Below are positions 23,789 through 42,753 of a DNA stretch of 64,000 nt, in pieces. The stretch is taken from the NCBI GenBank assembly GCA_028716165.1, contig JAQUQI010000005.1, forward strand, positions 24,996-88,995, written 5' to 3'. The stretch is from Candidatus Omnitrophota bacterium (GTDB lineage: Bacteria; Omnitrophota; Gorgyraeia; JABMRG01). Made by a program: the position numbers and the translations under genes. Numbering within the stretch: position 1 is the stretch's first letter; the number at the start of each line of letters is the position of its first letter. A model generated the notes under the pieces. That model saw only the letters and a list, made by a program, of their open reading frames with translations, had not been told where the DNA came from and did not search any database.

Positions 23789-24433
23789 ATGAATAAGGCA
23801 TTTTATTGCTTTTCCTGCGTGTTTTTAATGGCTTTGCTTGCGCTTTCGGGTTGCGCGAAACAAGAAGAAATCGTTATTGAAGAGTTTGAGGCGAAGAGCG
23901 CCGCCACGGGCAATGAGTTCAAGGTTTTTAATATATATACAGACAAGTCATCCCCGGGCAATCATTATATACCTTCAGGCTGGATGGGAGATTTCGGCGA
24001 CATAAAATTGAACGACCGCTGGATGGAAAATTCTCATAGCGGGACTACGTGTATCAGGATAGAATATGTGCCGCGCCGTTCGCAAGGCGCCGGCTGGATG
24101 GGCATATACTGGCAGAACCCCGCCAATAACTGGGGTTCAAAAAAATCCGGCTTTGACCTGACCGGCGCGAAGCAATTATCGTTTTATGCCCGCGGCGAAA
24201 AAGGCGGCGAAATTATATCGGAATTTAAAATAGGCGGTATCAGCGGTGAATTTTCTGATTCAGATTCCGCGGGTATCGGCCCTGCCATGCTTACCCAGGA
24301 TTGGAAAAAGTATGAGATAGACCTGAAAGGCAAGGACCTCTCGCATATTATAGGCGGTTTTTGTTTTTCGGCGAATTCTGACGACAATCCTGACGGTTTC
24401 ATAATATATCTTGACGAAATAAAATACGAGTAA
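23789..24433 (+). CDS. Lipoprotein with a CBM-like beta-sandwich domain (paralog 1 of 3)
   Basis: RBS AAGGAGG 7 nt upstream of the ATG at 23789 (the ORF track's start at 23759 is probably too early). Lipobox LSGC. Conserved FNIY.D...GNH(Y/F).PSGWMGD...W......G..C..I.Y.......GW.G.YWQNP.NNWG.KK.GFDLTGA..L.F.ARGEKGGE..........D..Y. Confidence 0.6.
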   Translation: MNKAFYCFSCVFLMALLALSGCAKQEEIVIEEFEAKSAATGNEFKVFNIYTDKSSPGNHYIPSGWMGDFGDIKLNDRWMENSHSGTTCIRIEYVPRRSQGAGWMGIYWQNPANNWGSKKSGFDLTGAKQLSFYARGEKGGEIISEFKIGGISGEFSDSDSAGIGPAMLTQDWKKYEIDLKGKDLSHIIGGFCFSANSDDNPDGFIIYLDEIKYE

Positions 24434-24465
24434 TAAACAATCCGCATGCTTTTTCCGAGCTGCAA

Positions 24466-24520
24466 CCGGCGCGCCTTTATGGCGTGCCGGCTTTGCCCCG
24501 GACGGCGGTGGTTTATTTTT
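24466..24520 (+). terminator. Possible terminator hairpin after the CBM-like gene at 23789
   Basis: CCGGCGCGCC-tttat-GGCGTGCCGG (one mismatch) followed ~20 nt later by TTTATTTTT. Confidence 0.3.
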
Positions 24521-24534
24521 AATATGAGGGATTT

Positions 24535-25812
24535 ATGATAAATAAAAAGTTTAAGCTAAAACCAAAAAAGCAAAATTCCAATAAAAAATTTATCCTATTT
24601 GTACTGGCCCTATTTTTTATGCTGTTATTAGGCATTTGCGTTGCTCTGATAGTAAAGTTTTCTTCAAAACCGGGAGTCGCTATACAAAAAAATTCAAAAG
24701 GGGATTATGTTTTGACCGTAAATAATAAACCCTATATAGTAAGGGGTGTCTGCTACAATCCAACACCTGTAGGAGAGGGCCCTATATATAATTGGTGGGG
24801 CAACCCTGCCAAGCCCTGGATTGCTGATGGAAGTCTTATGAAAGAGGCCGGCATTAATACCGTCCGGTTCTATGAACCCGGAGGCAAGCCCGAGCAGGTA
24901 AAGTCGGTGATATCTGATTTTTATGAAAAATACGGTATACGCTCTGTTATGGGCCATGGGCTTGGTTTTTGGGACTATCCTCATGCCAATTATGCCGATA
25001 TTGATTTCAGGCAGAAAATAAAAAAGCAGGTATACCAAATGGTCCAGGCCTACAAGCGAGAACCCGGAGTCATGGCATGGGTTTTGGGCAATGAGGCCAA
25101 TTATTCGTTTGACGGGAGCATGAATTCCTGGTCGACACCCGAGTTGGATGCTATTGAGAATGCCAAAGACAGACAGCTTGCCAAGGCCAAAATATACTAC
25201 ACTTTTTTAAACGACCTTGCGCGCATCGTAAAAACAATCGATCCTACAAGGCCTGTGGGTTTCGGTAACGGTGAACTTGGAAGCATAGAGATAGCTAAGG
25301 AGTATTGCCCTGATTTTGATTTTGCCGGCATTATTATTTACAGGGGAAAATCTTTCGGAAATCTTTTTCGCCAGCTTAAAGAAAGATATGGCAAGCCTTG
25401 CATGATTATAGAATTTGGTTGCGATTCGTACAATGCCCTTAAACAGGAACCCGACGAGGAAAGCCAGGCTTTTTTCCTGAAAACATTGTGGCAGGAAGTG
25501 GATTATAATACCTATCGCGGAAAAGGGGAAGGCAACTGCCTGGGAGGGCTTATATTTTCATGGACCGACGAATGGTGGAAAAGCAACCAGGATGACCCCA
25601 AAACATGGTCTATCCATAATACAGAGGCGAGTTGGACAAACGCCTCTTATTATTTTGACACAGAAGGCAACCCCAATATGAATGAAGAGTGGTTTGGCAT
25701 TGTTTCAGTCAGCTCTGAAAAAGAAAACGGCATAGATAAAAGGCTTCCAAAGAGGTCTTACGGTGTTTTAAAAGAACTATGGCTTTTAGAAGATAAGCCG
25801 GGCCGTAACTGA
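24535..25812 (+). CDS. Membrane-anchored clan GH-A (GH5-like) TIM-barrel glycoside hydrolase
   Basis: N-terminal TM anchor. WVLGNE (acid/base) and IIEFGCDSYN (nucleophile-like TE/EFG) motifs, plus ...FSWTDEWWK. Paralogous to the ORF at 29714. Confidence 0.6.
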   Translation: MINKKFKLKPKKQNSNKKFILFVLALFFMLLLGICVALIVKFSSKPGVAIQKNSKGDYVLTVNNKPYIVRGVCYNPTPVGEGPIYNWWGNPAKPWIADGSLMKEAGINTVRFYEPGGKPEQVKSVISDFYEKYGIRSVMGHGLGFWDYPHANYADIDFRQKIKKQVYQMVQAYKREPGVMAWVLGNEANYSFDGSMNSWSTPELDAIENAKDRQLAKAKIYYTFLNDLARIVKTIDPTRPVGFGNGELGSIEIAKEYCPDFDFAGIIIYRGKSFGNLFRQLKERYGKPCMIIEFGCDSYNALKQEPDEESQAFFLKTLWQEVDYNTYRGKGEGNCLGGLIFSWTDEWWKSNQDDPKTWSIHNTEASWTNASYYFDTEGNPNMNEEWFGIVSVSSEKENGIDKRLPKRSYGVLKELWLLEDKPGRN

Positions 25813-25932
25813 TATTTGTTTTAAGGCCACGGAAGCCTTCATTTGAGCGGAGAAAAGGCTTGTAGTCTCGGGTACCGGGAATTAATTGAATAATAAGCAT
25901 GATTCCGAAGGCAAGAGAAAGGATATGAACGT

Positions 25933-27240
25933 ATGAATAAATTTATATCACTTATATTAGCGGCCGGACTGGCCGGTATTGCCGGCTGCGCGCCAAGCGC
26001 GGTTGAAACTAAGGGCCCCGAGAAAATACTTGTGTGGCATTGGATGACCGACAGGGAAGAAGCCTTTGACGAATTGGCAAGAAGATACAAATCTCTTACA
26101 GGCACCAATGTTCAGTTTGAACTGTATGCTCCGACAGACGCGTATGATGAGAAAATAAAAGGCGCCGCCCAGACTCAGACCTTACCTGATATTTTCGGAG
26201 TTCTCGCGGACAAAAGGGTGATCGCGTCGTTTATTAATGCCGGCCATATCTTAAATCTTGGCCCATACATGGCACAGGATAACGGAAAATGGGAGAATAC
26301 CTTTTACGAAAAAGCGCTGAACGTAAACAGGTTTTTGGATAATAATGAATTTGCCGTTACGCCCGGTATATACGCCGCGCCGATAGATGTTATGAATATC
26401 CAGATGGTATATAATAAAGACCTGTTTAAGAAAGCCGGGCTTGACCCTGATAATCCTCCGAAAAACTGGGCTGATTTTCTTGATGCCGGCAATAAACTCA
26501 ATGCCGCCGGTATACAGGGCATGGTAAGCGGCTGGGGCGAGATATGGATGATAGACTGCCTTGCTTCAAATTATGCTTATAATATAATGGGCGAGGAAAA
26601 ATTTATAAAGACATTAACAGGCGAAGTTGCTTATACTGATCCTGACTGGATAAAGGTTTTTGGCCTTTTCAGGGATATGAGGGATAATAACCTGCTTGCC
26701 AGCGGTATCGTTACCATGGTCAATAAGCATGCTGAACAGATGTTTGCCAATCAGCGCGCGGCCATAGCCTTTAACGGTTCGTGGTGCGTTAACGTGTATC
26801 ACGGTATGAACCCGGATCTGAATTACGGCGCAATGCTGCCGCCGGCCTATTCTGATAAACATCCTATGATGGTATGGGGCGGGGCCGGAGCCAGCTTTAT
26901 GGTGAACGCCAGAAGCGCGCACAGGGAAAAAGTGGTTGAGTTTTTGAAATGGCTTACCGCGAAAGACCAGCAGGCATACCTGTCAACCCAGACCAGAAAC
27001 TTGCCGGCTAATAAAGACAGCCTCGGCGCGATACCCGAAGTGCTTGCGCAGTTTGTTGATGATATGGATTTGGTCAACCATCCCAACAATCTTAATGTAT
27101 CGGAATTTCCCAGGGTAATTGAGGCAAGGAGCAAGGGAATACAGTCTGTTATCATTGGAGAAAAAACACCTGAAGAGGTTGCGTTAGAGGTGCAAGCGGT
27201 TAAGCTGCGCGAACTTCAAAAATCCCAGGGCAAGGATTAA
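25933..27240 (+). CDS. ABC transporter extracellular solute-binding lipoprotein (family 1, oligosaccharide-type)
   Basis: Lipobox IAGC. Length and composition are typical of sugar SBPs, and it lies directly upstream of two MalF/MalG-type permeases. Confidence 0.7.
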   Translation: MNKFISLILAAGLAGIAGCAPSAVETKGPEKILVWHWMTDREEAFDELARRYKSLTGTNVQFELYAPTDAYDEKIKGAAQTQTLPDIFGVLADKRVIASFINAGHILNLGPYMAQDNGKWENTFYEKALNVNRFLDNNEFAVTPGIYAAPIDVMNIQMVYNKDLFKKAGLDPDNPPKNWADFLDAGNKLNAAGIQGMVSGWGEIWMIDCLASNYAYNIMGEEKFIKTLTGEVAYTDPDWIKVFGLFRDMRDNNLLASGIVTMVNKHAEQMFANQRAAIAFNGSWCVNVYHGMNPDLNYGAMLPPAYSDKHPMMVWGGAGASFMVNARSAHREKVVEFLKWLTAKDQQAYLSTQTRNLPANKDSLGAIPEVLAQFVDDMDLVNHPNNLNVSEFPRVIEARSKGIQSVIIGEKTPEEVALEVQAVKLRELQKSQGKD

Positions 27241-27270
27241 GGCAGGCGCTCTACCCTAATTCTTTCATAG

Positions 27271-28170
27271 TTGAGTAAAAAAATGCAAATAAAAAAAACA
27301 AAAACGATACTATCTAACTATCTTTTTGTCCTGCCGGCTGTTCTTTTGTTTTGCACGTTTCACGTATATCCTTTTATCAATGTATTCCGCTATTCTCTTT
27401 TTCAGTGGGACGGTATATCTCCCGCCATGAAATTCATAGGCCTTGCCAATTTCAAGGACATTTTTACCGCCAATTCCCAGTGGTGGTATTCCATGTGGCA
27501 CGCTTTTTATATCACACTGCTTACTCTGATATTTCAGAATGGTTTGGCATTAATACTGGCGCTTGCCTGTGACAGGGCGATAAAAGGCGCCCAGACCTAC
27601 AGGATGATATTTTTTCTGCCGCCCGTGCTTTCAGGAATAGTGGTAGGCCTTATTTGGCAGTGGATATACGACGGCAATTACGGGCTTTTGAACTATTGGC
27701 TTACGAGGATGGGCATAGGCCATCTTGCCCGCGCCTGGCTGGCTGACCCCAAAACAGCGCTAACATGTGTGGGGGTTGTCCATATGTGGAAAGGTTTTGG
27801 GTGGGGTTTTATTATATTGCTGGCCGGATTACAGTCAATACCGCGGGAATTATATGAAGCCGCTAAAGTGGACGGCGCCGGCGCCTGGGACTCCTTTGTA
27901 AGGGTCACGGTGCCCCTTATGATACCTGTTTTTGTCCTTGTTGTGATACTTACCATATTAAATACTATGCAGATATACGACCTTATAGTTTCTCTTACGG
28001 GCGGCGGCCCCGGATATCACACGGAAGTTCCTATTACAAGGATATTGGCTTCTATGAGAGGCGGTTCCCAGCTTGGTTATGCGTGCGCGCTTGGCGTAGT
28101 GTTCGGCTTGATACTTCTGGCTATTTCGTTCGCGCAGATACAGGGTTCAAAGCTTGTGAAGCAGGAGTAA
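27271..28170 (+). CDS. Sugar ABC transporter permease (MalF/UgpA-type)
   Basis: Six hydrophobic segments. EAA loop ELYEAAKVDGAGAWDSFVRVTVPL. The start may instead be the ATG at 27283. Confidence 0.8.
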   Translation: MSKKMQIKKTKTILSNYLFVLPAVLLFCTFHVYPFINVFRYSLFQWDGISPAMKFIGLANFKDIFTANSQWWYSMWHAFYITLLTLIFQNGLALILALACDRAIKGAQTYRMIFFLPPVLSGIVVGLIWQWIYDGNYGLLNYWLTRMGIGHLARAWLADPKTALTCVGVVHMWKGFGWGFIILLAGLQSIPRELYEAAKVDGAGAWDSFVRVTVPLMIPVFVLVVILTILNTMQIYDLIVSLTGGGPGYHTEVPITRILASMRGGSQLGYACALGVVFGLILLAISFAQIQGSKLVKQE

Positions 28171-28177
28171 TTTTTTT

Positions 28178-29062
28178 ATGCAAAAACCGGCATACTACAA
28201 AGCCAAGCAGTTTTTACTAACATATCTGACCCATATTCTGCTTATTATTGTGTCAGCCAGCTGTATACTGCCTTTGCTGTGGATGTTTGCCTCAAGCCTT
28301 AAAACCCAGGCAACTGTTTTTACGGACATGAGCCTGTGGCCGGCTAATCCCCACTGGGAAAATTTTTATATTGCCTGGACAAGAGGCGGGTTCGGAAAGT
28401 ATTTTTTTAACAGCCTTTTCTATACCATTGTTGTCGTAGTAAGCGTGGTTTTTGTCACTTCAATGGCGGCATATGGCATATCAAGGCTTAAGATACCCGG
28501 TAAGAATATCATATTTTTTGTGTTTCTGGCCGCCATGATGATACCAATACCCGGAGTTTTCGTCGCTCTTTATGTATTATTGAACAAGCTTGGTTTTTTA
28601 AATCCTAATACAGGGTTTTCTTTCCTTGACAATATGATTATGAGGATAGGGTATATGCTGCCTCTGATTAATAGCGGATTATCGCTGGGTATCTATATAT
28701 TAAAGACATTTTTTGATAAGATGCCCGGGGATTTAGAAGATTCGGGCAGGATAGACGGTTGTTCCAAATTCGGCATATACTGGCACATAGCGCTTCCTTT
28801 GGCCAAGCCCGCTATAGCGGTTATTGTTATTTTTAACACTCTGACCGTTTGGAATGAATACCTGCTTGCCATGCTGGTTTTGACCGGAAAGAGCCTGATG
28901 CCCCTTACGAGGGCTTTGATGGTATTCAGAGGGACCCATATCACGGAATATCCTCTTCTTATGTCAGGCATGTCCATAACCGTAATTCCTATAATAATAA
29001 TCTATCTTTTTTTGCAGAAACACATAATAGCAGGCATAACGGCAGGGGCGGTAAAGGGATGA
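28178..29062 (+). CDS. Sugar ABC transporter permease (MalG/UgpE-type)
   Basis: EAA-like loop LEDSGRIDGCSKFGIYWHIALPLAKPA, polytopic. Only 7 nt separate it from the upstream permease. Confidence 0.8.
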   Translation: MQKPAYYKAKQFLLTYLTHILLIIVSASCILPLLWMFASSLKTQATVFTDMSLWPANPHWENFYIAWTRGGFGKYFFNSLFYTIVVVVSVVFVTSMAAYGISRLKIPGKNIIFFVFLAAMMIPIPGVFVALYVLLNKLGFLNPNTGFSFLDNMIMRIGYMLPLINSGLSLGIYILKTFFDKMPGDLEDSGRIDGCSKFGIYWHIALPLAKPAIAVIVIFNTLTVWNEYLLAMLVLTGKSLMPLTRALMVFRGTHITEYPLLMSGMSITVIPIIIIYLFLQKHIIAGITAGAVKG

Positions 29063-29727
29063 TAAATTTTTTTTATTGTTTTGTTCGCGCGTTAAGTCGC
29101 AACATTTTTTTAAGAGAGTCCGGCCCGCGCGCAAGTGTATTAACTTTTTTAGTGTGTTTTACCTGCTTTATGCCGCGAGCTTTTGCTTTAGAACTGCCTG
29201 AAGAAGCCATGGCATATTACAAGGACAATACTGTTGCTTCAGCCGGCATATCGGATGGAGTTGGCCCCACGGTTAAAAAAGCGGAGATAATAGAGGGCGT
29301 TGATATCGGGAGACGAGAGGCCAAAGACTATGATTTTTCCGACAGCTCATTATCGGGCCTTACTATAAAAAGTTGGGAAGCGCTTAACCAAAAAGACGAA
29401 CAGGCCCTGCTTGCTTATACGGCACGGTGTTTTGACCTCTATACCCAGCAGGCAAAAGACCAGCAGGCCAGGATGACCGATTTTGCTCCTTCGGGTTCTG
29501 AAGCCGGGAATGAGGCTTTAAATAATGTGGCTGTCTGCTATTTTATGCTCGGGGAATTTTATAAGCATAAAAAGGATTGGCAAAAATCGGTTGAGAATTA
29601 TAAAAAGGCGGTTGATAATTTTTATTTCGCCCAATACTGGGACCCGCGCGGCTGGTGGTGGAAACCCTCGCAGATATCTCAAGGCGAAGTTGAAAAGATT
29701 AATACCGGATACTATGATAAAGAATAA
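29059..29727 (+). CDS. Hypothetical secreted protein (TPR-like helical), translationally coupled within the transporter/GH operon
   Basis: ATGA overlap with the permease stop. Hydrophobic N-terminus. No recognisable catalytic motif; the true start is uncertain. Confidence 0.4.
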   Translation: MINFFYCFVRALSRNIFLRESGPRASVLTFLVCFTCFMPRAFALELPEEAMAYYKDNTVASAGISDGVGPTVKKAEIIEGVDIGRREAKDYDFSDSSLSGLTIKSWEALNQKDEQALLAYTARCFDLYTQQAKDQQARMTDFAPSGSEAGNEALNNVAVCYFMLGEFYKHKKDWQKSVENYKKAVDNFYFAQYWDPRGWWWKPSQISQGEVEKINTGYYDKE

Positions 29728-31624: not shown

Positions 31625-31640
31625 TAAAAAAGGAGGAGAC

Positions 31641-32243
31641 ATGGGTAAAAAAAGATTTTTAGGTTTTATCCTTATGGCGGCCGTGGTTTTTACGACAATG
31701 GCGCTGAAGGCGCAGGCGGTTGATTATTTTGAACCGTTTAATATTTATTCGGACAGGAATGCCCGCGGCAATCACTTTGCCCCGTCGGGGTGGATGGGCG
31801 ATTATAATGACATTTCTTTCACGGATGCCTGGCAGGACAGCCCGCATTCGGGCGCTACGTGCATAAAGATTGTGTATAGGCCCAATGCTTCGCAGGGCGC
31901 CAGATGGGCGGGTATGTATTGGCAGAATCCGCCGAATAACTGGGGAGAGAAAAAAGGAGGCTTTGACCTGACAGGCGCCAGAAAACTGACATTTTGGGCC
32001 CGCGGCGAAAAAGGCGGCGAGCGCCTGGAGGAAGTCAAGGTAGGCGGAATTAACGGGGCTTATCCTGATTCGGATATTGCATCGGCAGGACCCATCATAC
32101 TCACGAAAGACTGGCAGCAATACAGCATAGACCTGAAAGGCAAAGATCTTACATATATCAGCGGCGGGTTTGTATGGGCTACCAACCTTGACGTTAACCC
32201 GGAAGGGTGCACGTTTTATCTTGATGACATAAGGTATGAGTAA
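31641..32243 (+). CDS. Secreted CBM-like beta-sandwich protein (paralog 2 of 3)
   Basis: RBS AAGGAGG 4 nt upstream of the ATG at 31641. Signal peptide. Same conserved domain as the ORF at 23789 (FNIYSDRNARGNHFAPSGWMGDYNDI ... YWQNPPNNWGEKKGGFDLTGA..L.FWARGEKGGE). Confidence 0.6.
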   Translation: MGKKRFLGFILMAAVVFTTMALKAQAVDYFEPFNIYSDRNARGNHFAPSGWMGDYNDISFTDAWQDSPHSGATCIKIVYRPNASQGARWAGMYWQNPPNNWGEKKGGFDLTGARKLTFWARGEKGGERLEEVKVGGINGAYPDSDIASAGPIILTKDWQQYSIDLKGKDLTYISGGFVWATNLDVNPEGCTFYLDDIRYE

Positions 32244-32247
32244 AAAC

Positions 32248-32292
32248 ATGCCCGGGATAAATATTTTTTAATTTGTCCCGGGCGTATTTTTT
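32248..32292 (+). terminator. Terminator-like hairpin after the CBM-like gene at 31641
   Basis: ATGCCCGGGA, an 18-nt AT-rich loop, TCCCGGGCGT, then ATTTTTT. Confidence 0.45.
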
Positions 32293-34542: not shown

Positions 34543-37500
34543 ATGCCCGGCAAAGTAAAATATTATTTTGGTAAAAATAATGAGTTCATAATAGACAATT
34601 ATTATCTTGCCAAGCCGTTTTCAAGTTTCTTTTGCGGCATAGCCGGCCAATGGGGCGTTCCCGCGTGGGTTTTTTATGTAAATCGCGGCCAGGCAATAGC
34701 TTCATTCGGCACGAAGGATAAAGATAATCCGATAATGGAATTTCAGCCTGCCAACAAATCTTATTATCTTGGCCCGATACTCGGTTTCAGGACTTTTATA
34801 AAAATAATGAGCGCTTCAGGGCCTGTTTTTTATGACGCGTTTTCAACAAGCCTTCACAATAGTTCATATGATATTAAAAATTCCATGATCATTACTTCTG
34901 CCGGGCTTAAACTGTCCGAGGTCAATCACACGCTGGGCATCGGGGTTTGCGTAGAATATTTTACCATACCCGGAGACACTTACGGCGCCCTTGCCAGAAA
35001 GGTAACTATAACCAATCTGGCAAAAGAAGCGAAAGAATTTGAGGTATTAGACGGCCTGCCGCAGATTCAGCCTTATGGCGTAAATAATTTTTTTTTAAAA
35101 CAGATGTCGCGCACTATTGAAGCCTGGGTTGTGGTTGAAAACCTTGAGAATGACCTGCCGTTTTTCAGGCTCAAAGTGGAGCCGGCCGACCGTCCGGAGG
35201 TTGTGCATGTAAAAAGAGGTAATTTTTATGCGCCCTTTGATTCTAAGGGGGCAATGAAAGTAATTGTTCAGCCTGATCTTGTTTTCGGCGCGCAAAACGA
35301 CCTAATCATTCCCGCCGCTTTTTTACGAAAGGGCTTTTTCCCGGTTCCAAAGTGCCAGTTTGCCAAGTCAAAGACTCCTTGCGCGTTCGCGTATAAACGT
35401 ATCAGGCTTAAGCAGGGTGATGAGTATGTTTATCATTCTATTTCCGGCAATATCAGCAGTCTGGACAATCTGAAGGCCCAGTCAAAGCGCATAACAGAAC
35501 CGGCTTATTTTGACCGCAAAAAGATAGAGAACGATTCTCTTGTCGCGTCTTTACAAAGCACTGTGTTTACCAAGTCCTCGTCGGCCGCGTTTGATTCATA
35601 CTGCGCTCAAAATTTTCTTGACAATATAATGCGCGGAGGGTATCCGGTTTCCATAGAGTATGCTTCGGGCAGGAAAAACCTGTATCTGTATTCCCGTAAA
35701 CACGGCGACCTTGAACGCGATTATAATATGTTTTTGCTTGAACCTTCCTGTTTTTCACAGGGCAACGGTAATTACCGTGACATTAATCAAAACCGCAGGT
35801 GCGATGCCTGGTTTAACCCGGCGCTCGGCAGTGAAAATATATATTATTTTTTCAACCTTCTACAGACCGATGGGTATAACCCGCTCGTAATATGCCCCGA
35901 CCGGTTTGAATTCAATCAAGACAAGGCCGCGATAAGCGGTTTTTTAAACCGTTATAATATGGAAAAGGTATCGGCATTTCTTAAAAATGATTTTACTCCC
36001 GGCGAGCTGATGAACTTTATTGACAGCAATAACATCATGCTAAGAGGCTCCAGGCCCGGCCTGTTAAGCGTTATTATGGAGAATTCAACAAAACATTCGC
36101 ACGCGGTTCATGGAGAAGGATTTTGGACGGACCACTGGCATTATTGCCTTGACCTTCTGGAGAGTTTTGCTGGGTTATACCCTGAAATGTTGAATGAAAT
36201 ATTGTTCCAAAAAGAGGATTTTACTTTCTTTGACAACGCGTATATTGTTAGTCCAAGAAGCAAAAGGCATCTCCTGCATAAAGGTTTTTTTAGGCAATTC
36301 GGCAGTGTTGTAAAAGACGCTGAAAAGGAAAGTATTATCGCTTCACGGGGAAGGCCGGCTAATATATCAAGGTCTAAAAACGGCAAAGGCGGCATATATA
36401 ATACGACACTGCTTGTCAAGATGGCGGTTGTTATAGCCAATAAATTCGCAAGCCTGGACCCCTTCGGCTGCGGCATAGAAATGGAAGCGGATAAACCTAA
36501 TTGGTATGACTCTCTCAACGGCCTGCCCGGGCTTTTGGGTTCATCAACTTGCGAGACTTTTGAGTTAAAAAGATGGATCATGTTTTTAAGGGGCGCGGTC
36601 GCGGGATTAGGGCCTGCGAAGAAAAACAGCGCCCGTATCCCGGTTGAGCTATATGACCTATTAAACGGATTATGCCGGACATGCGAAAGCGGCTTAAGCG
36701 ATTTCACGCGCTGGGACAGGAGAAACAGCTTAAAAGAAAAATACCGCTTAAAGACAAAATTTGGTTTTGAAGGCAGTGAAAAAGAAATAAGGCTTAAAGA
36801 GCTGGATTCTATATTGCGCGTATTTTTGTCGTTAATTGACAGGGGCCTGGAAAAGGCTTATGATAAAAAGTCAAAACTTTACCGCTCTTATTTTATCAAT
36901 GAGGCGGTTGAATATAGCGCTGTATCAAAAGATCCGGACAAGGTTTATGCCAGGGCCGGGAAATTCCGGCAGACGCCTCTTCCTTTTTTTCTTGAAGGCA
37001 TGGTACACGCGTTCAGGGTATCCGGCAAAAAGGATTGCCTGAAATATCACAAGACGGTCCGCTCCAGCGGGCTGTTTGATAAAAAGCTTAAAATGTATAA
37101 AGTCTGCGCAGCGCTTTGCAGCATGCCGGAAGAGATAGGCCGTTCGCGCGTGTTTACTCCGGGCTGGCTTGAGAATGAATCTGTCTGGCTGCATATGGAA
37201 TATAAATATATGCTGGAATTATTGAAATCAGGCCTTTACAGGGAATTTTTTGATGATTTTCGCAATGTTTTTGTTCCGTTCATGAAACCGGAGATATACG
37301 GCAGGAGTATATTTGAAAATTCTTCTTTTATTGTCTCAAGCGCTTTTCCTGAAAAGGGCCTTCATGGCAATGGTTTTGTGGCGCGCTTAAGCGGTTCAAC
37401 GGCGGAATTCATAAATATCTGGCTGATTATGTGCCTGGGGCATAGGCCGTTTTATTTAGACAAGGAAGCAAGGTTATGCGCCGGATTCAAGCCCATCCTT

Positions 37501-37764
37501 CCCGGCTGGTTGTTCACCGCGGGGCCGGCAGAGGGGTTTGCGAAAGGTGTTTTCGCGTTTAGTTTTCTTTCAAAGACGCAGGTGGTTTATCATAATCCTT
37601 TGAGAAAAGATACTTTCGGCCCGTCAGGGGCAAAAATAAAGAGTATTTTTATGCGATGGACAGACGGCAGGACAGCCCGGTTTAAGGGTGCCTCTATACC
37701 GTATCCTTATTCAAACGACATAAGAAAAGGCGATATTTCGCGTATAGAGATAGAAATGGCCTGA
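34543..37764 (+). CDS. Large (1073 aa) putative glycoside phosphorylase/hydrolase distantly resembling the GH94 superfamily (GH94/GH149/GH161-like)
   Basis: No signal peptide. N-terminal beta-sandwich-like region followed by an (alpha/alpha)6-like region (…DHWHYCLDLLESFAGLYPEM…). Adjacent to a bona fide GH94 gene. This assignment is weak. Confidence 0.4.
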   Translation: MPGKVKYYFGKNNEFIIDNYYLAKPFSSFFCGIAGQWGVPAWVFYVNRGQAIASFGTKDKDNPIMEFQPANKSYYLGPILGFRTFIKIMSASGPVFYDAFSTSLHNSSYDIKNSMIITSAGLKLSEVNHTLGIGVCVEYFTIPGDTYGALARKVTITNLAKEAKEFEVLDGLPQIQPYGVNNFFLKQMSRTIEAWVVVENLENDLPFFRLKVEPADRPEVVHVKRGNFYAPFDSKGAMKVIVQPDLVFGAQNDLIIPAAFLRKGFFPVPKCQFAKSKTPCAFAYKRIRLKQGDEYVYHSISGNISSLDNLKAQSKRITEPAYFDRKKIENDSLVASLQSTVFTKSSSAAFDSYCAQNFLDNIMRGGYPVSIEYASGRKNLYLYSRKHGDLERDYNMFLLEPSCFSQGNGNYRDINQNRRCDAWFNPALGSENIYYFFNLLQTDGYNPLVICPDRFEFNQDKAAISGFLNRYNMEKVSAFLKNDFTPGELMNFIDSNNIMLRGSRPGLLSVIMENSTKHSHAVHGEGFWTDHWHYCLDLLESFAGLYPEMLNEILFQKEDFTFFDNAYIVSPRSKRHLLHKGFFRQFGSVVKDAEKESIIASRGRPANISRSKNGKGGIYNTTLLVKMAVVIANKFASLDPFGCGIEMEADKPNWYDSLNGLPGLLGSSTCETFELKRWIMFLRGAVAGLGPAKKNSARIPVELYDLLNGLCRTCESGLSDFTRWDRRNSLKEKYRLKTKFGFEGSEKEIRLKELDSILRVFLSLIDRGLEKAYDKKSKLYRSYFINEAVEYSAVSKDPDKVYARAGKFRQTPLPFFLEGMVHAFRVSGKKDCLKYHKTVRSSGLFDKKLKMYKVCAALCSMPEEIGRSRVFTPGWLENESVWLHMEYKYMLELLKSGLYREFFDDFRNVFVPFMKPEIYGRSIFENSSFIVSSAFPEKGLHGNGFVARLSGSTAEFINIWLIMCLGHRPFYLDKEARLCAGFKPILPGWLFTAGPAEGFAKGVFAFSFLSKTQVVYHNPLRKDTFGPSGAKIKSIFMRWTDGRTARFKGASIPYPYSNDIRKGDISRIEIEMA

Positions 37765-37883
37765 CCGTCCCCCGCCCGCCGGTTATGATTTTAATGCTTG
37801 ATTATTTTCTGTTTATGTGGTATATAGATATCCTGAAACATTTAACCCCCTAAAAGGCTCTATTATAGGAGAATCCCATCAGA

Positions 37884-40316
37884 ATGAACCTGAAAAAATA
37901 CGGCTATTTTTCCAAAGACCGTCTTGAATTTATTATAACTAATCCTGTCACCCCCAGGCCTTGGATTAATTATCTTACCAATGAAGACTATTGCGCCGTT
38001 ATATCGCAAAATGCCGGAGGTTATAGTTTTTACAAAGACTGCCGAAGCGATAGGATACTGCGGTGGCAGCCCGATAACTGGCATTTTGACAGGCCGGGCA
38101 GGTATATTTATCTAAGGGATAAAAATACCGGTAAATGCTGGTCAGCCTCTTATCAGCCGATGAGGGTCAAACCGCAATTTTATCAGTCGCGGCATGGCTT
38201 GGGTTATACTATTACAAATACCACATATTACGGTATTAACATTGAAACCACATTTTTTGTCCCTTGCCATGATACCTGTGAAGTGTGGCATGTGAAGATA
38301 TCAAATGATACGTCAAAGACTAAAAACCTGGAGGTATATCCGTACGCGGAATGGCTTCTTGGGGATTACCATCAGGAACTTCGTTACCGCAATATAATGA
38401 ACCTTTACAATAGGGTCTGGTTTGATAAAACCAAAAAGGCCGTGTTTGCCAAAAAAACGGCATTCTGGGCGGATATGCGGATAAAACCCTATCCTTATAT
38501 AAATTTTCTTGCTTCAAGCCTTCCTGTGGCAGGCTATGCCACGCAAAAAGACGGTTTCTTGGGGCGATATAATACGGAGGAAACGCCGCAGGCTGTCCTT
38601 GAGGGGAGTTTTAAGAATTCAGGGTTTACTTCAGGCGAGGATTCTATAGCGTGTCTCAAACATAATGTGGTTTTGAAACCCGGCTCGCGCAAGGAATTTA
38701 CCATAGTGCTGGGGCAGACCGACAAAGATGACCATCTATCCGATATACTTGCAAAATACCGCAATGTTAAAAAAGCAAAAGAAGAATTTGCCAGAGTCAA
38801 GGCGCTTTGGAAGAAGAGAATCGCAGACAACATTGTGATAGAAACGCCGGATGATGATTTTAATAATATGATGAATTACTGGGTTAAGTACCAGGTTTAT
38901 ATATGTAATTTTTGGTCGCGTTCACCCAGTTATTATCATGAAGGTTCAGGCGGGCGGGGATACAGAGATTCATGCCAGGACGCTGAAAGTATTATGGCTA
39001 TAGACACAAAGCACGCCAAAAAGAAAATCAGGCGCATAGTTTCTCTTATCAGAAAAGACGGCACATGCGCCCCGGGTTTTTCCGATACCACAGGCCCTGC
39101 CGGCCACAGGCCGAACAAGGACCATCCTATTTGGCTTACCATGACTGTGTCGGCCTATGTCAAAGAGACCGGTGATAAGGAAATATTGCTTGAATATGCC
39201 CCCTATCTTAAAGACAAATGGATAAACGGCTGGTCTGTTGACACAAACTATCAGGCCGGCATTTCTACCGACGGGGAAGGGACTATATTTGACCATCTTG
39301 AGAGGAACCTGAATTTTACCTTTAATGATGTAGGGCCCAGAGGCCTGCCTCTTATAGGCCACGCGGACTGGAATGACGCGATAGACGCCGCCGGTATCAA
39401 GCTTAAGGGGGAAAGCGTCTGGCTTGCTATGGCGCTTGTCAGAAGCCTTAAGACATTGGCTGAAATGGCACTGCTTATAGGTCAAACGGAAAAAGCCGAT
39501 CAGCTTTTACATAAAGCCGGCACAATGACCGGCAGGATAAATGATTCCGCCTGGGACGGGAATTGGTACGTAAGGGGTTTTACTGATGAAGGGTTTATTT
39601 ACGGTTCCCGCAAAAATAAGGAAGGCAGGGTGTTTATCAATACGCAGAGCTGGGCCGTGCTTTCCGGTGTGGCTGATGCCGCGCGCAGAGAAAAAATACT
39701 GAAATCCGTTGATAAATATCTTAATGGTCCGCACGGCCTGGCGTTATTTTATCCGGCTTTTTCCAAATGGGACAGCAGATTAGGAAGGATCAGCATGTTT
39801 TCGGAAGGCACCAAGGAGAATGCCGCGGTATTTTGCCACGCGGTCATGTTTCAAGCGGTCGCGGAATGTATGGCCGGCCGAGGGAACAAGGCATATGAGG
39901 CTATGAAGAAGATCATGCCATGTAATCAGAAGGACTACGATCTTTATAAGACAGAACCTTTCGCCTATGCGGAATATATTGTAGGCCCCCAGCACCCTTA
40001 TCTCTCCGGAGAGGGCGCTTTTACATGGATAACGGGTAATGCGGGTTGGAATTTTTTGGCGGCTACCGAATGGGTATTGGGCGCCAGGCGCGAATATGAA
40101 GGTTTGCGTATAGATCCCTGTATACCAAGTTCCTGGAAACAGGCAAGGATAAAAAGGCCTTTTAGAGGGTCTATTTATGATATATTGATCAAAAACCCTG
40201 ATAACAAAGAAAAGGGAGTCAAAAAGCTTATTGTTGATGGCAGGCAGATGGAGTCAAATCTTATTTATCCGCACTCGGACGGCAATGTCCATAAAGTTGA
40301 GGTTCTTTTAGGCTGA
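37884..40316 (+). CDS. GH94 glycoside phosphorylase (cellobiose/chitobiose/cellodextrin phosphorylase family)
   Basis: The N-terminus matches GH94 throughout: PRPWINYLTNEDYCAVISQNAGGYSFYKD ... RHGLGYTITNTTYYGINIETTFFVP ... EVWHVKISN. 810 aa, cytoplasmic. RBS ATAGGAGA. Confidence 0.8.
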   Translation: MNLKKYGYFSKDRLEFIITNPVTPRPWINYLTNEDYCAVISQNAGGYSFYKDCRSDRILRWQPDNWHFDRPGRYIYLRDKNTGKCWSASYQPMRVKPQFYQSRHGLGYTITNTTYYGINIETTFFVPCHDTCEVWHVKISNDTSKTKNLEVYPYAEWLLGDYHQELRYRNIMNLYNRVWFDKTKKAVFAKKTAFWADMRIKPYPYINFLASSLPVAGYATQKDGFLGRYNTEETPQAVLEGSFKNSGFTSGEDSIACLKHNVVLKPGSRKEFTIVLGQTDKDDHLSDILAKYRNVKKAKEEFARVKALWKKRIADNIVIETPDDDFNNMMNYWVKYQVYICNFWSRSPSYYHEGSGGRGYRDSCQDAESIMAIDTKHAKKKIRRIVSLIRKDGTCAPGFSDTTGPAGHRPNKDHPIWLTMTVSAYVKETGDKEILLEYAPYLKDKWINGWSVDTNYQAGISTDGEGTIFDHLERNLNFTFNDVGPRGLPLIGHADWNDAIDAAGIKLKGESVWLAMALVRSLKTLAEMALLIGQTEKADQLLHKAGTMTGRINDSAWDGNWYVRGFTDEGFIYGSRKNKEGRVFINTQSWAVLSGVADAARREKILKSVDKYLNGPHGLALFYPAFSKWDSRLGRISMFSEGTKENAAVFCHAVMFQAVAECMAGRGNKAYEAMKKIMPCNQKDYDLYKTEPFAYAEYIVGPQHPYLSGEGAFTWITGNAGWNFLAATEWVLGARREYEGLRIDPCIPSSWKQARIKRPFRGSIYDILIKNPDNKEKGVKKLIVDGRQMESNLIYPHSDGNVHKVEVLLG

Positions 40317-40442
40317 TCATGCCTTTTTGTGCGGTTTTTAGGCAGATTTTGTCTTAAAAACTGCTGATAAAAATCAAAAAATTAATCGGTGGGAAGAATA
40401 AAAATAGATTTTTTTAAAACTTTAGAAAATAATACAAAAAGC

Positions 40443-40478
40443 TTGACAAAAGATAGGTTTTCTGCTATATTTATAATA
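40443..40478 (+). promoter_or_regulatory. Near-consensus sigma70-type promoter upstream of the family-A gene
   Basis: TTGACA (40443-48), a 17-nt spacer, TATATT, and a TATAAT just downstream. Confidence 0.5.
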
Positions 40479-40605
40479 TAAAAGTAGTTTTTTGTAGTTT
40501 TGTTTATTATTATTGTTTTATATATAAAGTAATAAGAGAGGAGAAAAGATGAAATTTCTTACTTGGAGTTTTATTAAAAAATTTACCGGAAAGGAGGTGA
40601 AAAAC

Positions 40606-41352
40606 ATGAGAGTATTATTATCCATTATTATGACCATTACGATGGTAATCTCTACAAGCGGACTGTCTTTTGCCGAGTTCTCAAGCATAGGCAAAAGCAC
40701 TTTTTCCGCTTCAGGCACGGTAGGCGGTTCGGGCGGTGTTACAGTGGCTTTTAGCGCCAACCTGAAAAACATTACAGGCGATACTACAAGCTCATCTGTA
40801 ACATGGTCTACAATTACCGCGGGCACTACCGGATGGTTGGCGGCACAGCAGTATATCGCTGTGCAAGGGTTTGCTACCTACAGTGATTGGGGTATACAGA
40901 TATATACCAATAACACCAATTATACTGGATCAGGTGACCCTGCCGGATTGATCAATCAAAGCAATACTATTTACAGTTTGCCTATGGCATGGAGAACAAA
41001 GACAACCAAACTTGCTTCAGGCAGTACTGAACTTAGTATAATTGAAAAGACAGTCGGAGGATATGCAGTCCTCGCCGATGGAACAGGGCAGACTTATTAT
41101 CCCTGGTTCTATATGCTTGATAAGCGATCGGATCTGGATACAGCTACTGCCGGCGTTCAGGCATTTGGTAACTATCAGGAGTATGCGACCTTTATAGGTT
41201 CTAAAGGTTATCAGCATGCGCCTTCAGATTATGCCACGCCGTCTTCTGCTGATATGACATATTATGTTTATCTTGGAGCCAAGTTTACGCAGGCGGCCCC
41301 GGGAGCGACATACGCTACCAGTTCCTTGACCGTAGAGATGTATCGTCTCTAA
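40606..41352 (+). CDS. Secreted protein, family A (shares its mature N-terminus with the ORF at 43598 and a core domain with the ORF at 41464)
   Basis: RBS AAGGAGGTGA 6 nt upstream of the ATG at 40606. The alternative upstream ATG at 40549 also has a strong SD. Signal peptide ...SGLSFA | EFSSIGKSTFSASGTVGG. The domain VTWSTITAGTTGW...WGIQIY.NN...GDPAGL.N......SLPMAW is paralogous to the ORF at 41464. Confidence 0.55.
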   Translation: MRVLLSIIMTITMVISTSGLSFAEFSSIGKSTFSASGTVGGSGGVTVAFSANLKNITGDTTSSSVTWSTITAGTTGWLAAQQYIAVQGFATYSDWGIQIYTNNTNYTGSGDPAGLINQSNTIYSLPMAWRTKTTKLASGSTELSIIEKTVGGYAVLADGTGQTYYPWFYMLDKRSDLDTATAGVQAFGNYQEYATFIGSKGYQHAPSDYATPSSADMTYYVYLGAKFTQAAPGATYATSSLTVEMYRL

Positions 41353-41429
41353 TATATAAGATTTTCCTGGCCCTGCCTGACACGGTTAAGCTATCAGGCA
41401 GGGTTAGGACAGGGCCAGGTTCTTATATA
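41353..41429 (+). terminator. Extended GC-rich imperfect hairpin between the two family-A paralogs (terminator/attenuator-like)
   Basis: TATATAAGA-tttt-CCTGGCCCTGCCTGA ... TCAGGCAGGG(ttagga)CAGGGCCAGG-tt-TCTTATATA. Begins 1 nt after the stop codon and has no U-run. Confidence 0.4.
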
Positions 41430-41463
41430 TTAGAAAAGTTTTTATTTGTATCCGGGAGATACT

Positions 41464-42753
41464 ATGAGATTTACTAACATGTATAGAAAAAATTCTATGT
41501 ATTTATTTGTCACGGCCTTAGTATTGTCTGTGGCCTCGTACTGTTATGCCGCTGACAGCGCCTCTGTTGTTGTCAAAGGTCTTACAGAGGGCAGTCTGAA
41601 TGTTGTTGTACGCAATATCAGTAACAATCAGCCGGCAAGTAACGGCCTTATTACATGGAGTAATCTTATCGCGGGCCAGACAGGATGGAGAGTAGCCAAT
41701 CAATACATAGAGATTTCTCATAGTGGTTTGCCGGCAGGCTGGGGCATACAGATATATTCGGACAATAAAAACACATCGGCCTCTCCTAAATATATCGGTA
41801 CCGCTAATCCCGCCGGGTTAGTCAATGCTAAATATTCCGTATTATCTGCGCCTATGGCGTGGCAGGTGACGGATTCTGTCATAAGCCCTACTACCCCTGT
41901 CCAGCGAGCTGATAATACTGGTTTCACCAATTATCTGTGGCATTTTTTAAAAGATGTCAATACTACCGATGACCCTAAAACAGAAGCCTATAATGAGACT
42001 TTCCAGAACGCAGAAGATTATATAACGGTCTGGAACCAGTCTGGCATAGCGTGGAATGAAGGCGGCAGGACCGGCAACCCCAAGAAGGCGTATATTTATT
42101 TGGCGGCAAACTTTACCATGTCCCCTGCCGGATCCCAGTATCAGACATCAACTCTTACTATTGAAGTTTATAAAGGCGTTTCACCTTTTCCTGTATATAT
42201 CTATAAGGATGCTTCTTTGGCGGATTATCCAGACGAAGCAGGTGCCACGCTTGCTAATCACTTTAACCCTTCAGGTTGGATGAATTACAATGGCCAATTT
42301 AGCGTTAATCCGAAATGCAAATCTGTTATACCTTATTCGCCTCCGCACTGTTTTGAGATTACATGGAATGGCAATGAGGGAAGCGATGGATGGACATGGG
42401 GAGGCATCCAATGGCTTGAACCGGCAGATATATGGGAAAAAAATGGCAAAAGCGCTACGCATAACGGTTATGACTTAAGAGGGGCCTCCGCTTTAACTTT
42501 TTGGGCGCGCACCAATACGGATAATAAAAGAGGGTTGAGTATAGGTATCTATATGGGTAATACTTGGGATTCATGTAAACAGACGAGTACGGATTGGGTA
42601 TCGCTTAGCACGCAGTGGAAGAAATTCAGCATTTATGTCAGCGGACGAAATATGTCCAATGTTACCGGAGGCCTTGCGATAGTATTTGATTCGGAACACG
42701 ATCCTGAACCCGAGGGTTGTGTAATATATATTGATGATATTAAGTTTGAATAA
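41464..42753 (+). CDS. Secreted two-domain protein: N-terminal family-A core domain plus C-terminal CBM-like beta-sandwich (paralog 3 of the CBM-like family)
   Basis: Signal peptide ...SYCYA. ITWSNLIAGQTGW...WGIQIYSDN...ANPAGLVN...LSAPMAW parallels the ORF at 40606. The C-terminal NHFNPSGWMNY...WTWGGIQW......GYDLRGA..L.FWAR........YIDDIKFE parallels the ORFs at 23789 and 31641. Confidence 0.55.
   Translation: MRFTNMYRKNSMYLFVTALVLSVASYCYAADSASVVVKGLTEGSLNVVVRNISNNQPASNGLITWSNLIAGQTGWRVANQYIEISHSGLPAGWGIQIYSDNKNTSASPKYIGTANPAGLVNAKYSVLSAPMAWQVTDSVISPTTPVQRADNTGFTNYLWHFLKDVNTTDDPKTEAYNETFQNAEDYITVWNQSGIAWNEGGRTGNPKKAYIYLAANFTMSPAGSQYQTSTLTIEVYKGVSPFPVYIYKDASLADYPDEAGATLANHFNPSGWMNYNGQFSVNPKCKSVIPYSPPHCFEITWNGNEGSDGWTWGGIQWLEPADIWEKNGKSATHNGYDLRGASALTFWARTNTDNKRGLSIGIYMGNTWDSCKQTSTDWVSLSTQWKKFSIYVSGRNMSNVTGGLAIVFDSEHDPEPEGCVIYIDDIKFE

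Follow-up and report, generated by a model that had tools for sequence, protein, structure and literature searches.

Three exported proteins encoded in the window (the whole 64,000-nucleotide stretch of DNA analysed here) share a domain of about 170 residues, given the working name CBMx. We read it as a non-catalytic, glycan-binding beta-sandwich and a candidate new family of carbohydrate-binding module (CBM), with a type-B fold like that of CBM30 and CBM11 and, most likely, a beta-1,3-glucan of the laminarin type as its ligand (probability about 0.55). Taken singly, binding to a glycan of some kind is quite probable, and specificity for beta-1,3-glucan has even odds or slightly better. On this reading the beta-glucan ligand of the original prediction can be narrowed to beta-1,3-glucan.

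Three CBMx copies in the window

The domain is common to P1, P2 and the C-terminal half of P3, for which alternative ORF starts lie at 23759/23789, 31596/31641 and 41446/41464, respectively.

23789..24433, + strand: P1, stand-alone CBMx protein of 214 residues with a lipoprotein signal (LALSG/C); the gene is called in an identical Logan contig
31641..32243, + strand: P2, stand-alone CBMx protein of 200 residues with a Cys-free signal peptide; the protein used for modelling
41464..42753, + strand: P3, a rare N-terminal beta-rich domain (about residues 30-245) and a diverged CBMx (about 42190-42750)

BLASTP aligns P1 with P2 at 54-57% identity (E 1e-80), P1 with P3 at E 2e-20 and P2 with P3 at E 2e-23, values that rule out chance similarity. 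A scan of all six frames of the window with the family profile finds exactly three copies (E 3e-113, 4e-96 for P1 and 4e-61 for P3) and no fourth, the 5144-residue ORF included. Judged by sequence, P1, P2 and the C-terminal 187 or so residues of P3 are paralogous, as the original prediction held. The motifs quoted there are verbatim in P1 and P2: GNHYIPSGWMGD in P1 has its counterpart GNHFAPSGWMGD in P2, W.G.YWQNP.NNWG.KK.GFDLTGA occurs in both, and the terminal motif reads YLDEIKYE in P1 and YLDDIRYE in P2. P3 has diverged forms, ANHFNPSGWMNY, WGGIQWLEPADIW...GYDLRGA and YIDDIKFE.

Export signals, read by eye from the sequence itself for these and the other cluster proteins, are present on all three CBMx proteins. 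A lipobox occurs in P1 only, and the description of both stand-alone copies as lipoproteins is therefore true of P1 alone; the signal peptide of P2 (ALKAQA/VD) has no Cys, and that of P3 is SYCYA/AD-like. A model of P3 has pLDDT of about 80-94 in its CBMx half and low confidence (about 40-80) in its N-terminal half. The N-terminal domain has only five database relatives, and this half of P3 is paralogous to a neighbouring 267-residue secreted protein (BLASTP E 1e-27, 31% identity).

Predicted fold and wider family

An AF2 model of P2 (pLDDT 88, pTM 0.79) is a compact beta-sandwich. Its top Foldseek matches are CBM30 (E 7e-7) and, next, a CBM11 structure with bound mixed-linkage tetrasaccharide, and nearly all the solved folds closest to it belong to carbohydrate-binding modules; the model superimposes on solved CBM30 and CBM11 members, with 11-18% sequence identity in the structural alignments. 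The predicted fold supports glycan binding and, together with the GH17 fusions described below, agrees with the CBM-like beta-sandwich originally proposed. Weaker matches include the non-lectin proteins CIA30, MAM, reelin and the FlaA1 sheath protein. A catalytic role was considered for CBMx and rejected; the conserved positions show no GH16-type ExDxxE motif, and the best fold matches are modules without catalytic function.

P1, P2 and P3 are assigned to no Pfam family, and neither they nor 53 family members pass the threshold of any Pfam or NCBIfam model. None of the 53 family members scanned against Pfam and NCBIfam matches a Pfam CBM model at E <= 1, CBM30 (PF21582) and CBM11 (PF03425) included, and the CBMx profile matches no PDB sequence at E <= 10; these results, and the occurrence of the fold in non-lectin proteins, count against glycan binding. 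The one link to the CBM30 model is indirect, through the GH17 protein P0158, whose third domain scores 27.3 bits on it (cut-off 27) and can be aligned in register with numerous CBMx copies, giving BLAST E-values down to 2e-5 in a 150-sequence database and an hhalign E-value of 2.3e-4 over 114 columns. Assignment to a non-carbohydrate-binding family, named in the original prediction as the outcome to speak against it, did not emerge from Pfam, and NCBIfam gives for the three window proteins only sub-threshold matches to a domain without assigned function. This domain, NF038128 "choice-of-anchor J", occurs like CBMx in secreted or surface proteins. The similarity is weak and nearly full-length (model positions 15-161 of 162), with 41 of the 53 members matching at E <= 0.01 (best E 1.1e-5), whereas P2 at 20 bits and P1 at 17 bits fall well under the curated 30-bit cut-off. 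Since NF038128 has no assigned function, the relation is silent on the ligand of CBMx.

The family numbers about 3150 clusters at 50% identity, with up to eight tandem copies per protein. Contrary to the original supposition it is not lineage-specific, because members carry Altiarchaeales, Coriobacteriia and Myxococcales labels. Among 46 multidomain members, 13 have a GH17 domain that ends near residue 490-500 and is followed by two or three CBMx copies. P0178 has a GH17 domain similar to the beta-1,3-glucanosyltransferase 4wtp (E 1e-24), and P0166 is named "exo-beta-1,3-glucanase (GH17 family)" by JGI. By their sequences, these fusions support CBMx as a module of carbohydrate-active enzymes. 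They share about 38-55% identity with one another and may all go back to one ancestral fusion; two of their genes, P0271 and P0166, adjoin caspase, bDLD1 and EAD7 genes in these two contexts, and no sugar-uptake locus. A GH26 domain occurs in one multidomain member, a GH26-like protein adjoins one stand-alone copy, and one multidomain protein of the family has a CBM_11 match over an unlocated stretch. Very large surface proteins with CBMx also bear PKD, cadherin-like, FG-GAP, beta-helix, cohesin and OmpA domains, and some copies lie within exosortase/PEP-CTERM clusters.

By the standards of CAZy, a CBM is a contiguous module within carbohydrate-active enzymes, which the GH17 fusions provide, and a discrete, independently folding domain, which the P2 and P3 models predict; the definition further asks for carbohydrate-binding activity in at least one member, which for CBMx is a prediction. 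No description of the domain or its locus was found in the papers searched on Omnitrophota with laminarin or beta-glucan, on GH158 or on GH161. CBMx is likely a candidate new CBM family, new as a family of a familiar kind of protein and introducing no new principle. If it does bind, the family would bring thousands of members, currently without Pfam annotation, into the CAZyme annotation of metagenomes, and could furnish a new beta-1,3-glucan probe or affinity tag.

Gene cluster and conserved neighborhood

In 64 of 79 related loci, as in the window, CBMx has clan GH-A glycanase genes and a sugar importer for neighbours, which upholds the glycan-utilisation setting first proposed. Besides P1, P2 and P3, the features of the region are as follows.

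24535..25812, + strand: GH158a, GH158-like clan GH-A hydrolase, 425 residues; N-terminal membrane anchor, Pfam Glyco_hydro_2_C TIM barrel (E 5e-8)
25933..27240, + strand: CUT1-type ABC sugar-binding lipoprotein; signal IAG/C, SBP_bac_1 E 1.5e-33
27283..29062, + strand: two ABC permease genes (27283-28170 and 28178-29062); BPD_transp_1 matches, gene calls
29059..29727, + strand: orf222, conserved ORF of 222 residues; weak TPR match; in 30 of 79 related loci it separates the second permease from GH158b
29690..31624, + strand: GH158b, GH158-like clan GH-A hydrolase, 644 residues; lipoprotein signal FVSG/C, unassigned N-terminal region of about 300 residues, then TIM barrel
32248..32285, + strand: terminator-like hairpin, 15 pairs then a T-run, 5 nt past the P2 stop codon; strongest such hairpin of the region (consensus scan only)
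32305..34434, + strand: PilZ protein, 709 residues; N-terminal PilZ domain (E 6e-11)
34543..37764, + strand: GH161 beta-1,3-oligoglucan phosphorylase; no signal peptide (cytoplasmic)
37884..40316, + strand: GH94 disaccharide phosphorylase, cytoplasmic
40549..41352, + strand: 267-residue secreted protein, paralog of the N-terminal half of P3

Two of the copies had been placed immediately upstream of GH-A genes. P1 does lie directly upstream of GH158a, but P2 is 16 nt downstream of GH158b and upstream of the PilZ gene. P3 precedes a 257-residue ORF without assignment, and a promoter-like site (40443-40471) stands ahead of the gene for the 267-residue secreted protein. Within the cluster there is no ATPase gene for the ABC importer and, by Pfam scan, no outer-membrane transporter gene; among 24 window proteins (ORFs 15567 to 56199), none matches SusC, SusD or a TonB-dependent receptor in Pfam. 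A ligand call from the ABC binding protein was dropped, its PDB relatives all being generic CUT1 oligosaccharide-binding proteins. Beyond its PilZ domain, the 709-residue protein has a faint GH76 match (E 0.007) and no PDB relative.

The best PDB sequence matches of GH158a are 6pal and the GH158 enzyme 9oro (E about 6e-7 to 7e-7), and GH158b matches 9oro at E 2e-12; about 135 residues align with 9oro in each case, a similarity too low for a firm CAZy family call. The catalytic motifs are kept in GH158b, where GNE and TEYG align with WALGNES and LVTEFG of GH158, and the two window enzymes are paralogous (32.5% identity over 424 residues). GH158 enzymes are beta-1,3-glucanases (PMC7157763, PMC13195107). 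The two phosphorylases, which have no export signals, are placed in their families by sequence. GH161 matches GH161A (PDB 9qqk) at E 1.6e-217 over nearly its full length (residues 10-1071), with a partial NCBIfam GH149 match besides, and GH94 has both the supersandwich and the catalytic domain (Pfam E 1e-104 and 6e-70). Of solved structures, a cellobiose phosphorylase (3qde, E 4e-142) is nearest to GH94; cellobiose and chitobiose phosphorylases resemble the enzyme far more than does the solved laminaribiose phosphorylase (6ggy), which matches at no better than E 2e-36.

The 79 genome loci in which neighbours within 10 kb were counted are those most closely related to P2; nearly all bear the label Omnitrophota or, in TPA assemblies, "uncultured Planctomycetia". 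The cluster core recurs in 64 of them: a GH158-like gene is present in 64 of 79 (49 of 56 among loci of at least 10 kb), and each ABC component in 38-42. The commonest order is SBP, permease, permease, (orf222), GH158b, CBMx, CBMx, GH158a. The PilZ protein occurs near CBMx in 21 of 79 loci, GH94 in 10 and GH161 in only 6. A sample so chosen speaks for the conserved synteny of one orthologous cluster, not for the family at large.

The order of steps we envisage is the following. P1, lipid-anchored, and P2, secreted and soluble, would hold beta-1,3-glucan chains at the envelope in a putative cleft with conserved residues Y36, Y79, W89, W94, Q95, N100, W101, D54 and D143 (P2 numbering). Membrane- or lipid-anchored GH158-like retaining glycanases would cleave the held chains there, and the lipoprotein binding protein and two permeases would take up the oligosaccharides. 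Cytoplasmic GH161 would then phosphorolyse them, presumably as far as the disaccharide, the end point reported for PapP, a characterised GH161 enzyme, and GH94 would complete the breakdown to glucose and glucose-1-phosphate. P3, whose diverged CBMx is joined to another kind of N-terminal domain, is probably part of the following transcription unit. If this is correct, Omnitrophota encode a conserved, complete route for uptake and phosphorolysis of laminarin-type glucan.

Ligand, location and known systems

The GH17 fusion partner and the GH158-like and GH161 neighbours point to beta-1,3- over beta-1,4-glucan. It is rather unlikely, if the strongest of the alternatives, that CBMx binds beta-1,4- or mixed-linkage beta-glucan, or is promiscuous like CBM30, CBM11 and CBM44, the cluster then importing cellodextrin or mixed-linkage oligosaccharides. 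CBM30 and CBM11 are type-B modules from cellulases of Clostridium thermocellum; their ligands are beta-1,4 and mixed-linkage glucans instead of pure beta-1,3-glucan, and the closest folds include the CBM11-tetrasaccharide complex; the nearest relatives of GH94 are cellobiose phosphorylases, the GH-A enzymes resemble GH158 only distantly, and GH26 appears both as a neighbour and as a fused domain. Also counted against the beta-1,3 reading are the possible single origin of the GH17 fusions, the position of P0271 and P0166 outside sugar-uptake loci, the rarity of GH161 and GH94 in the 79 loci, and the exosortase/PEP-CTERM copies. On the other hand GH161 is firmly assigned, and the GH161 enzymes described in the available text of PMC6484121 act on beta-1,3-linked glucans; the recurrent fusion partner GH17 is a beta-1,3-glucan-active family, and, among characterised proteins, those nearest to the two GH-A enzymes are beta-1,3-glucanases.

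Less probable again is a non-lectin beta-sandwich that does not itself bind carbohydrate but serves protein-protein contacts or structure, either tethering or organising GH-A enzymes at the surface or building surface fibres and adhesins. The widespread sub-threshold resemblance to choice-of-anchor J, the tandem copies in very large multi-domain surface proteins, the exosortase/PEP-CTERM clusters, the MAM, CIA30, reelin and FlaA1 structural matches and the fusion of P3 to a rare domain common to the neighbouring secreted protein would all suit such a module. The non-lectin matches nevertheless score below the CBMs that overwhelmingly occupy the top, the recurrent attachment of CBMx at the C-terminal side of a glycanase catalytic domain is the arrangement classical for CBMs, and true CBMs are also commonly tandem in adhesin-like proteins. 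Family-wide conservation of W89, W94, W101 and W158 (P2 numbering), with Tyr, Asn, Gln and Asp positions, is a composition typical of glycan-binding sites.

For glycan-binding P1 and P2, use as stand-alone surface or periplasmic binding proteins is the best reading. A strictly periplasmic role, binding oligosaccharides released outside so as to pass them to the ABC binding protein or prevent their loss, is improbable: the plain, anchorless signal peptide of P2, the missing outer-membrane transporter gene and the lipoprotein nature of the binding protein and one glycanase would allow it, but type-B CBM-like clefts fit polymer chains, and CBMx relatives occur within very large proteins that are evidently extracellular.

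CBMx resembles CBM30 and CBM11 in its size of about 170 residues and its tandem position C-terminal to clan GH-A catalytic domains, and is tied to CBM30 by the weak in-register link through P0158. It differs in its signature motifs (PSGWMGD, W.G.YWQ.P.NNWG, YLDDI.YE), in being mostly a stand-alone secreted protein and in associated enzymes that point to beta-1,3-, not beta-1,4-glucan.

The analogy to surface glycan-binding proteins (SGBPs) of Bacteroidota polysaccharide utilisation loci holds for function only. Like SGBP-B of Bacteroides (BuSGBP-B, BtSGBP-B; PMC7157763; PDB 7kwb), CBMx proteins are non-catalytic, exported and partly lipid-anchored, are encoded beside GH158-type enzymes (in the window GH158-like, putative beta-1,3-glucanases) in a glucan utilisation cluster, and would capture polymer for surface enzymes. 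Unlike SGBP-B, a multidomain protein without detectable sequence relationship to it, CBMx is a single 170-residue domain, a lipoprotein in P1 only, and its cluster has not the SusC/SusD pair that an SGBP lipoprotein adjoins; uptake would be by a CUT1 ABC importer and breakdown by cytoplasmic phosphorylases. If true, the logic of binding protein, surface glycanases and importer is here realised with components that bear no relation to the Sus paradigm of Bacteroidota.

Omnitrophota are an uncultured phylum, and laminarin-type glucan is among the most abundant marine and freshwater glycans. We offer as a speculation that stand-alone, tandem and giant-repeat CBMx proteins serve glycan recognition in a hitherto unrecognised, phylum-wide Omnitrophota system, in which a new CAZy CBM family doubles as attachment factor. 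It would latch ultra-small cells onto beta-1,3-glucan (dissolved laminarin, or surface or storage material of host or prey) and feed the GH158-like enzymes, importer and phosphorylases, with c-di-GMP perhaps exerting control by way of the conserved PilZ protein.

Kuhaudomlarp et al. (2019, PMC6484121) describe clusters for beta-1,3-oligoglucan phosphorolysis in which a GH161-GH94 tandem accompanies an ABC importer that lacks an ATPase gene. As in the available text of that report, GH161 in the window is followed directly by GH94, both phosphorylases being cytoplasmic, the importer consists of a binding protein and two permeases with no ATPase gene, and sequential phosphorolysis of imported beta-1,3-oligoglucans is proposed. 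The tandems described in that text come from Paenibacillus and Acholeplasma, with GH1, GH3, GH16 or GH30 as partners, whereas the partners in the window are two GH158-like enzymes, the PilZ protein and CBMx proteins, and its relatives are labelled Omnitrophota.

The CBMx gene cluster

The genes between 23.7 and 42.8 kb are consecutive and lie on one strand. They comprise three proteins that carry the CBMx domain (P1, P2 and P3), two GH158-like hydrolases of clan GH-A (GH158a and GH158b), transport components and two phosphorylases.

Genes of the cluster in order (window positions; all on one strand)
23759-24433 (real start 23789): P1, CBMx copy
24535-25812: GH158a (GH-A hydrolase 'a'), directly 3' of P1
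3' of GH158a: CUT1 binding lipoprotein and two permeases
Between the permeases and GH158b: conserved 222-aa ORF (orf222)
29690-31624: GH158b (GH-A hydrolase 'b'), lipoprotein
31596-32243 (real start 31641): P2, CBMx copy
32305-34434: PilZ-domain protein, 709 aa, between P2 and the GH161 gene
Next in order: GH161 phosphorylase, 1073 aa (9qqk, E 1.6e-217)
Next in order: GH94 phosphorylase (Pfam, E 1e-104; 3qde, E 4e-142)
ORF 40549: secreted protein, 267 aa, between the GH94 gene and P3
41446-42753 (start 41464): P3, CBMx at the C-terminus

The three ORFs share one domain, as the original prediction held. P1 and P2 share 54-57% of their residues (BLASTP E 1e-80); with the C-terminal ~187 residues of P3 the E values are 2e-20 for P1 and 2e-23 for P2. 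A CBMx family profile made from 53 members, run on six frames of the whole window, finds exactly three copies (E 3e-113, 4e-96 and 4e-61) and no others, the 5144-aa ORF included. The motifs first described for the domain are exact in P1 and P2 but have diverged in P3. P1 and P2 had both been called stand-alone lipoproteins, and two of the three copies had been placed upstream of GH-A genes. Of the three, only P1 has a lipobox (LALSG|C) and only P1 lies directly 5' of a GH-A gene (GH158a), whereas P2 has a signal peptide free of cysteine and lies 16 nt 3' of GH158b, 5' of the PilZ-domain gene.

The two GH-A hydrolases are paralogues of each other. The nearest solved relatives of both are GH158 beta-1,3-glucanases (E 2e-12 and 7e-7). 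The motifs GNE (acid/base) and TEYG (nucleophile) line up with their counterparts in GH158. GH158 is a family of endo- or processive beta-1,3-glucanases (PMC7157763; PMC13195107). An ATPase gene for the CUT1 ABC importer is absent among the genes of the cluster; for GH161-GH94 tandems accompanied by ATPase-less ABC importers, stepwise phosphorolysis of imported beta-1,3-oligoglucans has been proposed (PMC6484121). Export signals occur in P1, P2, P3, GH158a, GH158b and the binding protein, and the GH161, GH94 and PilZ protein sequences contain none. A strong terminator-like hairpin (32248-32285) 5 nt 3' of the P2 stop and a strong promoter-like site 5' of ORF 40549, both consensus matches only, suggest that P1 through P2 form a single transcription unit, with P3 in a later one.

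In the 709-aa protein the PilZ domain, of c-di-GMP-receptor type, is N-terminal, and the remaining ~580 aa give only a faint match to GH76 (E 0.007).

Fold, spread and architectures of the CBMx family

With a limit as loose as E <= 1, Pfam still returns no match for P1, P2, P3 or a set of 53 homologues, and PDB sequences give none to the family profile at E <= 10. The NCBIfam model 'choice-of-anchor J', a domain without assigned function, is matched by 41 of the 53 members (best E 1.1e-5), near full-length but below threshold (for P2, 20 bits against a cut-off of 30). The AlphaFold2 model of P2 is a beta-sandwich (pLDDT 88, pTM 0.79) for which Foldseek puts CBM30 and CBM11 in first places (E about 1e-6); ranked lower are the non-lectin sandwiches CIA30, MAM, reelin and FlaA1. 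A link at the sequence level comes from P0158, a database family member carrying GH17. Its third domain scores above the Pfam CBM30 threshold (27.3 vs 27 bits), and many CBMx copies align to it in register, the lowest BLAST E value being 2e-5 against a database of 150 sequences; hhalign connects the same domain to CBMx at E 2.3e-4 over 114 columns with a probability of 44%. Our reading is that CBMx forms a divergent branch of the CBM30/CBM11-like superfamily, outside all current sequence models. As a candidate beta-sandwich CBM serving a glycan utilisation cluster it is of a familiar kind; its sequence family is large and appears unclassified in every library tested.

A word-indexed search returned 2126 relatives, the named ones all 'hypothetical protein' from Candidatus Omnitrophota/Omnitrophica MAGs, and an exhaustive profile search returned 3150 clusters at 50% identity, 2226 of them at E <= 1e-10. 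At least 565 stretches of species-representative genomes code for a CBMx relative; labels for the best 79 of these are nearly all Omnitrophota, or 'uncultured Planctomycetia' (TPA assemblies). Other members are labelled Altiarchaeales (archaeal), Coriobacteriia and Myxococcales/Deltaproteobacteria, so the family is enriched in Omnitrophota yet not confined to the phylum, and the idea that it is lineage-specific has to be given up.

CBMx proteins reach eight tandem copies and 2917 aa. GH17 occurs in 13 of the 46 multidomain members scanned; among the partners in other members are PKD, Ig-like, cadherin-like, FG-GAP, beta-helix, cohesin, OmpA, a T9SS signal, GH26, CBM_11 and CBM30. Where GH17 is present, this catalytic domain extends to about residue 490-500, and two or three CBMx copies follow. 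The GH17 identity is backed by PDB 4wtp, a beta-1,3-glucanosyltransferase (E 1e-24), and by the JGI name for P0166, another such protein. This layout is a classical CBM architecture, attached to a beta-1,3-glucan-active family. The 13 proteins are mutually related and may all derive from a single ancestral fusion.

In the two contexts examined (L084 2869-14050; L087 1175-7280) GH17-CBMx genes adjoin genes for Peptidase_C14 (caspase), bDLD1 and EAD7, with no sugar-uptake setting. Of the pair of GH17 genes on the first contig, one shows a faint CBM30 match.

Conserved neighbourhood and proposed role

A Logan contig contains the stretch from P1 to P2 in identical form, and around a P2 orthologue of 80% identity the gene order is kept through GH94 and the P3 orthologue. 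The 79 loci represent the nearest relatives of P2, and their counts are evidence for one conserved orthologous cluster rather than a family-wide rule: a GH158-like gene lies at most 10 kb away in 64 of 79 (49/56 among loci of at least 10 kb), and the same distance takes in each ABC component in 38-42, the PilZ protein in 21, GH94 in 10 and GH161 in 6. The CBMx gene is one single-domain ORF in 44 loci, one two-domain ORF in 22 and two separate ORFs in 12. The most frequent order is sugar-binding protein, permease, permease, (orf222), GH158b, CBMx, CBMx, GH158a. We found no description of an Omnitrophota cluster of GH158-like enzymes, ABC importer, GH161, GH94 and CBMx in the literature searchable here.

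Compared with the commonest order (L015-L080), the window (23789-32243) and one related locus, L005, have the P1 and GH158a pair at the front, upstream of the ABC genes, which is a within-cluster rearrangement. In a related contig GH161 and GH94 are separated by a Y1_Tnp (IS200-type) transposase gene that is read from the opposite strand (L002 15954-16586; L004 8435-9067), an insertion absent from the window. Stand-alone CBMx genes of Omnitrophota also recur in a second setting, in the order exosortase EpsH, DUF3485, CBMx, PEP-CTERM protein, T2SS-K/HHH protein (L054 7260-13870; L062 6370-13806); in L054, CBMx is preceded by a GH26-like protein that ends in a PEP-CTERM tail.

We infer that P1, lipid-anchored, and P2, soluble, would hold beta-1,3-glucan chains, presumably through a cleft with family-conserved aromatic and polar residues. 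Conserved positions in P2 are Y36, D54, Y79, W89, W94, Q95, N100, W101, D143, W158 and D195, kept in at least 70-97% of 222 domain instances. The anchored GH158-like enzymes would act on the polymer that these two proteins present. Uptake of the oligosaccharides would fall to the ABC system, and their conversion to glucose-1-phosphate and glucose to GH161 and then GH94. The predicted fold, the GH17 fusions, the synteny and the enzyme families are what the analysis establishes; glycan binding, its specificity and residues, the cellular location and the sequence of steps are proposals. The resemblance of CBMx to CBM30/CBM11 and the cellobiose-phosphorylase-like character of the window GH94 would also suit a different beta-glucan as ligand, an unlikely alternative beside the GH17 fusions and GH158-like neighbours. 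Somewhat less probable again is a non-lectin module with a scaffolding or adhesin role, to which the choice-of-anchor J matches, the presence of CBMx in giant surface proteins and the exosortase setting of some CBMx genes would point; the leading structural matches are to CBMs. That P1 and P2 serve a periplasmic hand-off is the most doubtful of the three.

Genes flanking the cluster

The giant 5144-aa ORF (85-15519) begins at the window edge, and its 5' end is probably truncated. The adjoining 776-aa ORF (16714-19044) is a paralogue of two of its regions, one of which is the C-terminal ~175 aa (50% identity); neither ORF has a Pfam assignment. Directly 5' of P1 is a 1430-aa secreted protein (19218-23510) with HEAT repeats and a phosphoribulokinase/uridine-kinase-like domain, found beside the cluster in 0 of the 79 loci.

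ORF 40549, the N-terminal half of P3 and a 1306-aa PKD protein (43598-47518) have a sequence in common just past the signal peptide (AEFSSIGKSTFSASGTVGG in ORF 40549 vs AAFSSIAQSGFSASVTIG in ORF 43598). ORF 40549 and the P3 N-terminal half are 31% identical throughout, and their domain family has just 5 database relatives. The cluster goes on with a secreted ORF of 257 aa, a T2SS-C/PDZ protein and large uncharacterised proteins, so that a surface-fibre or secretion module is a possible reading of the 40549-47518 region.
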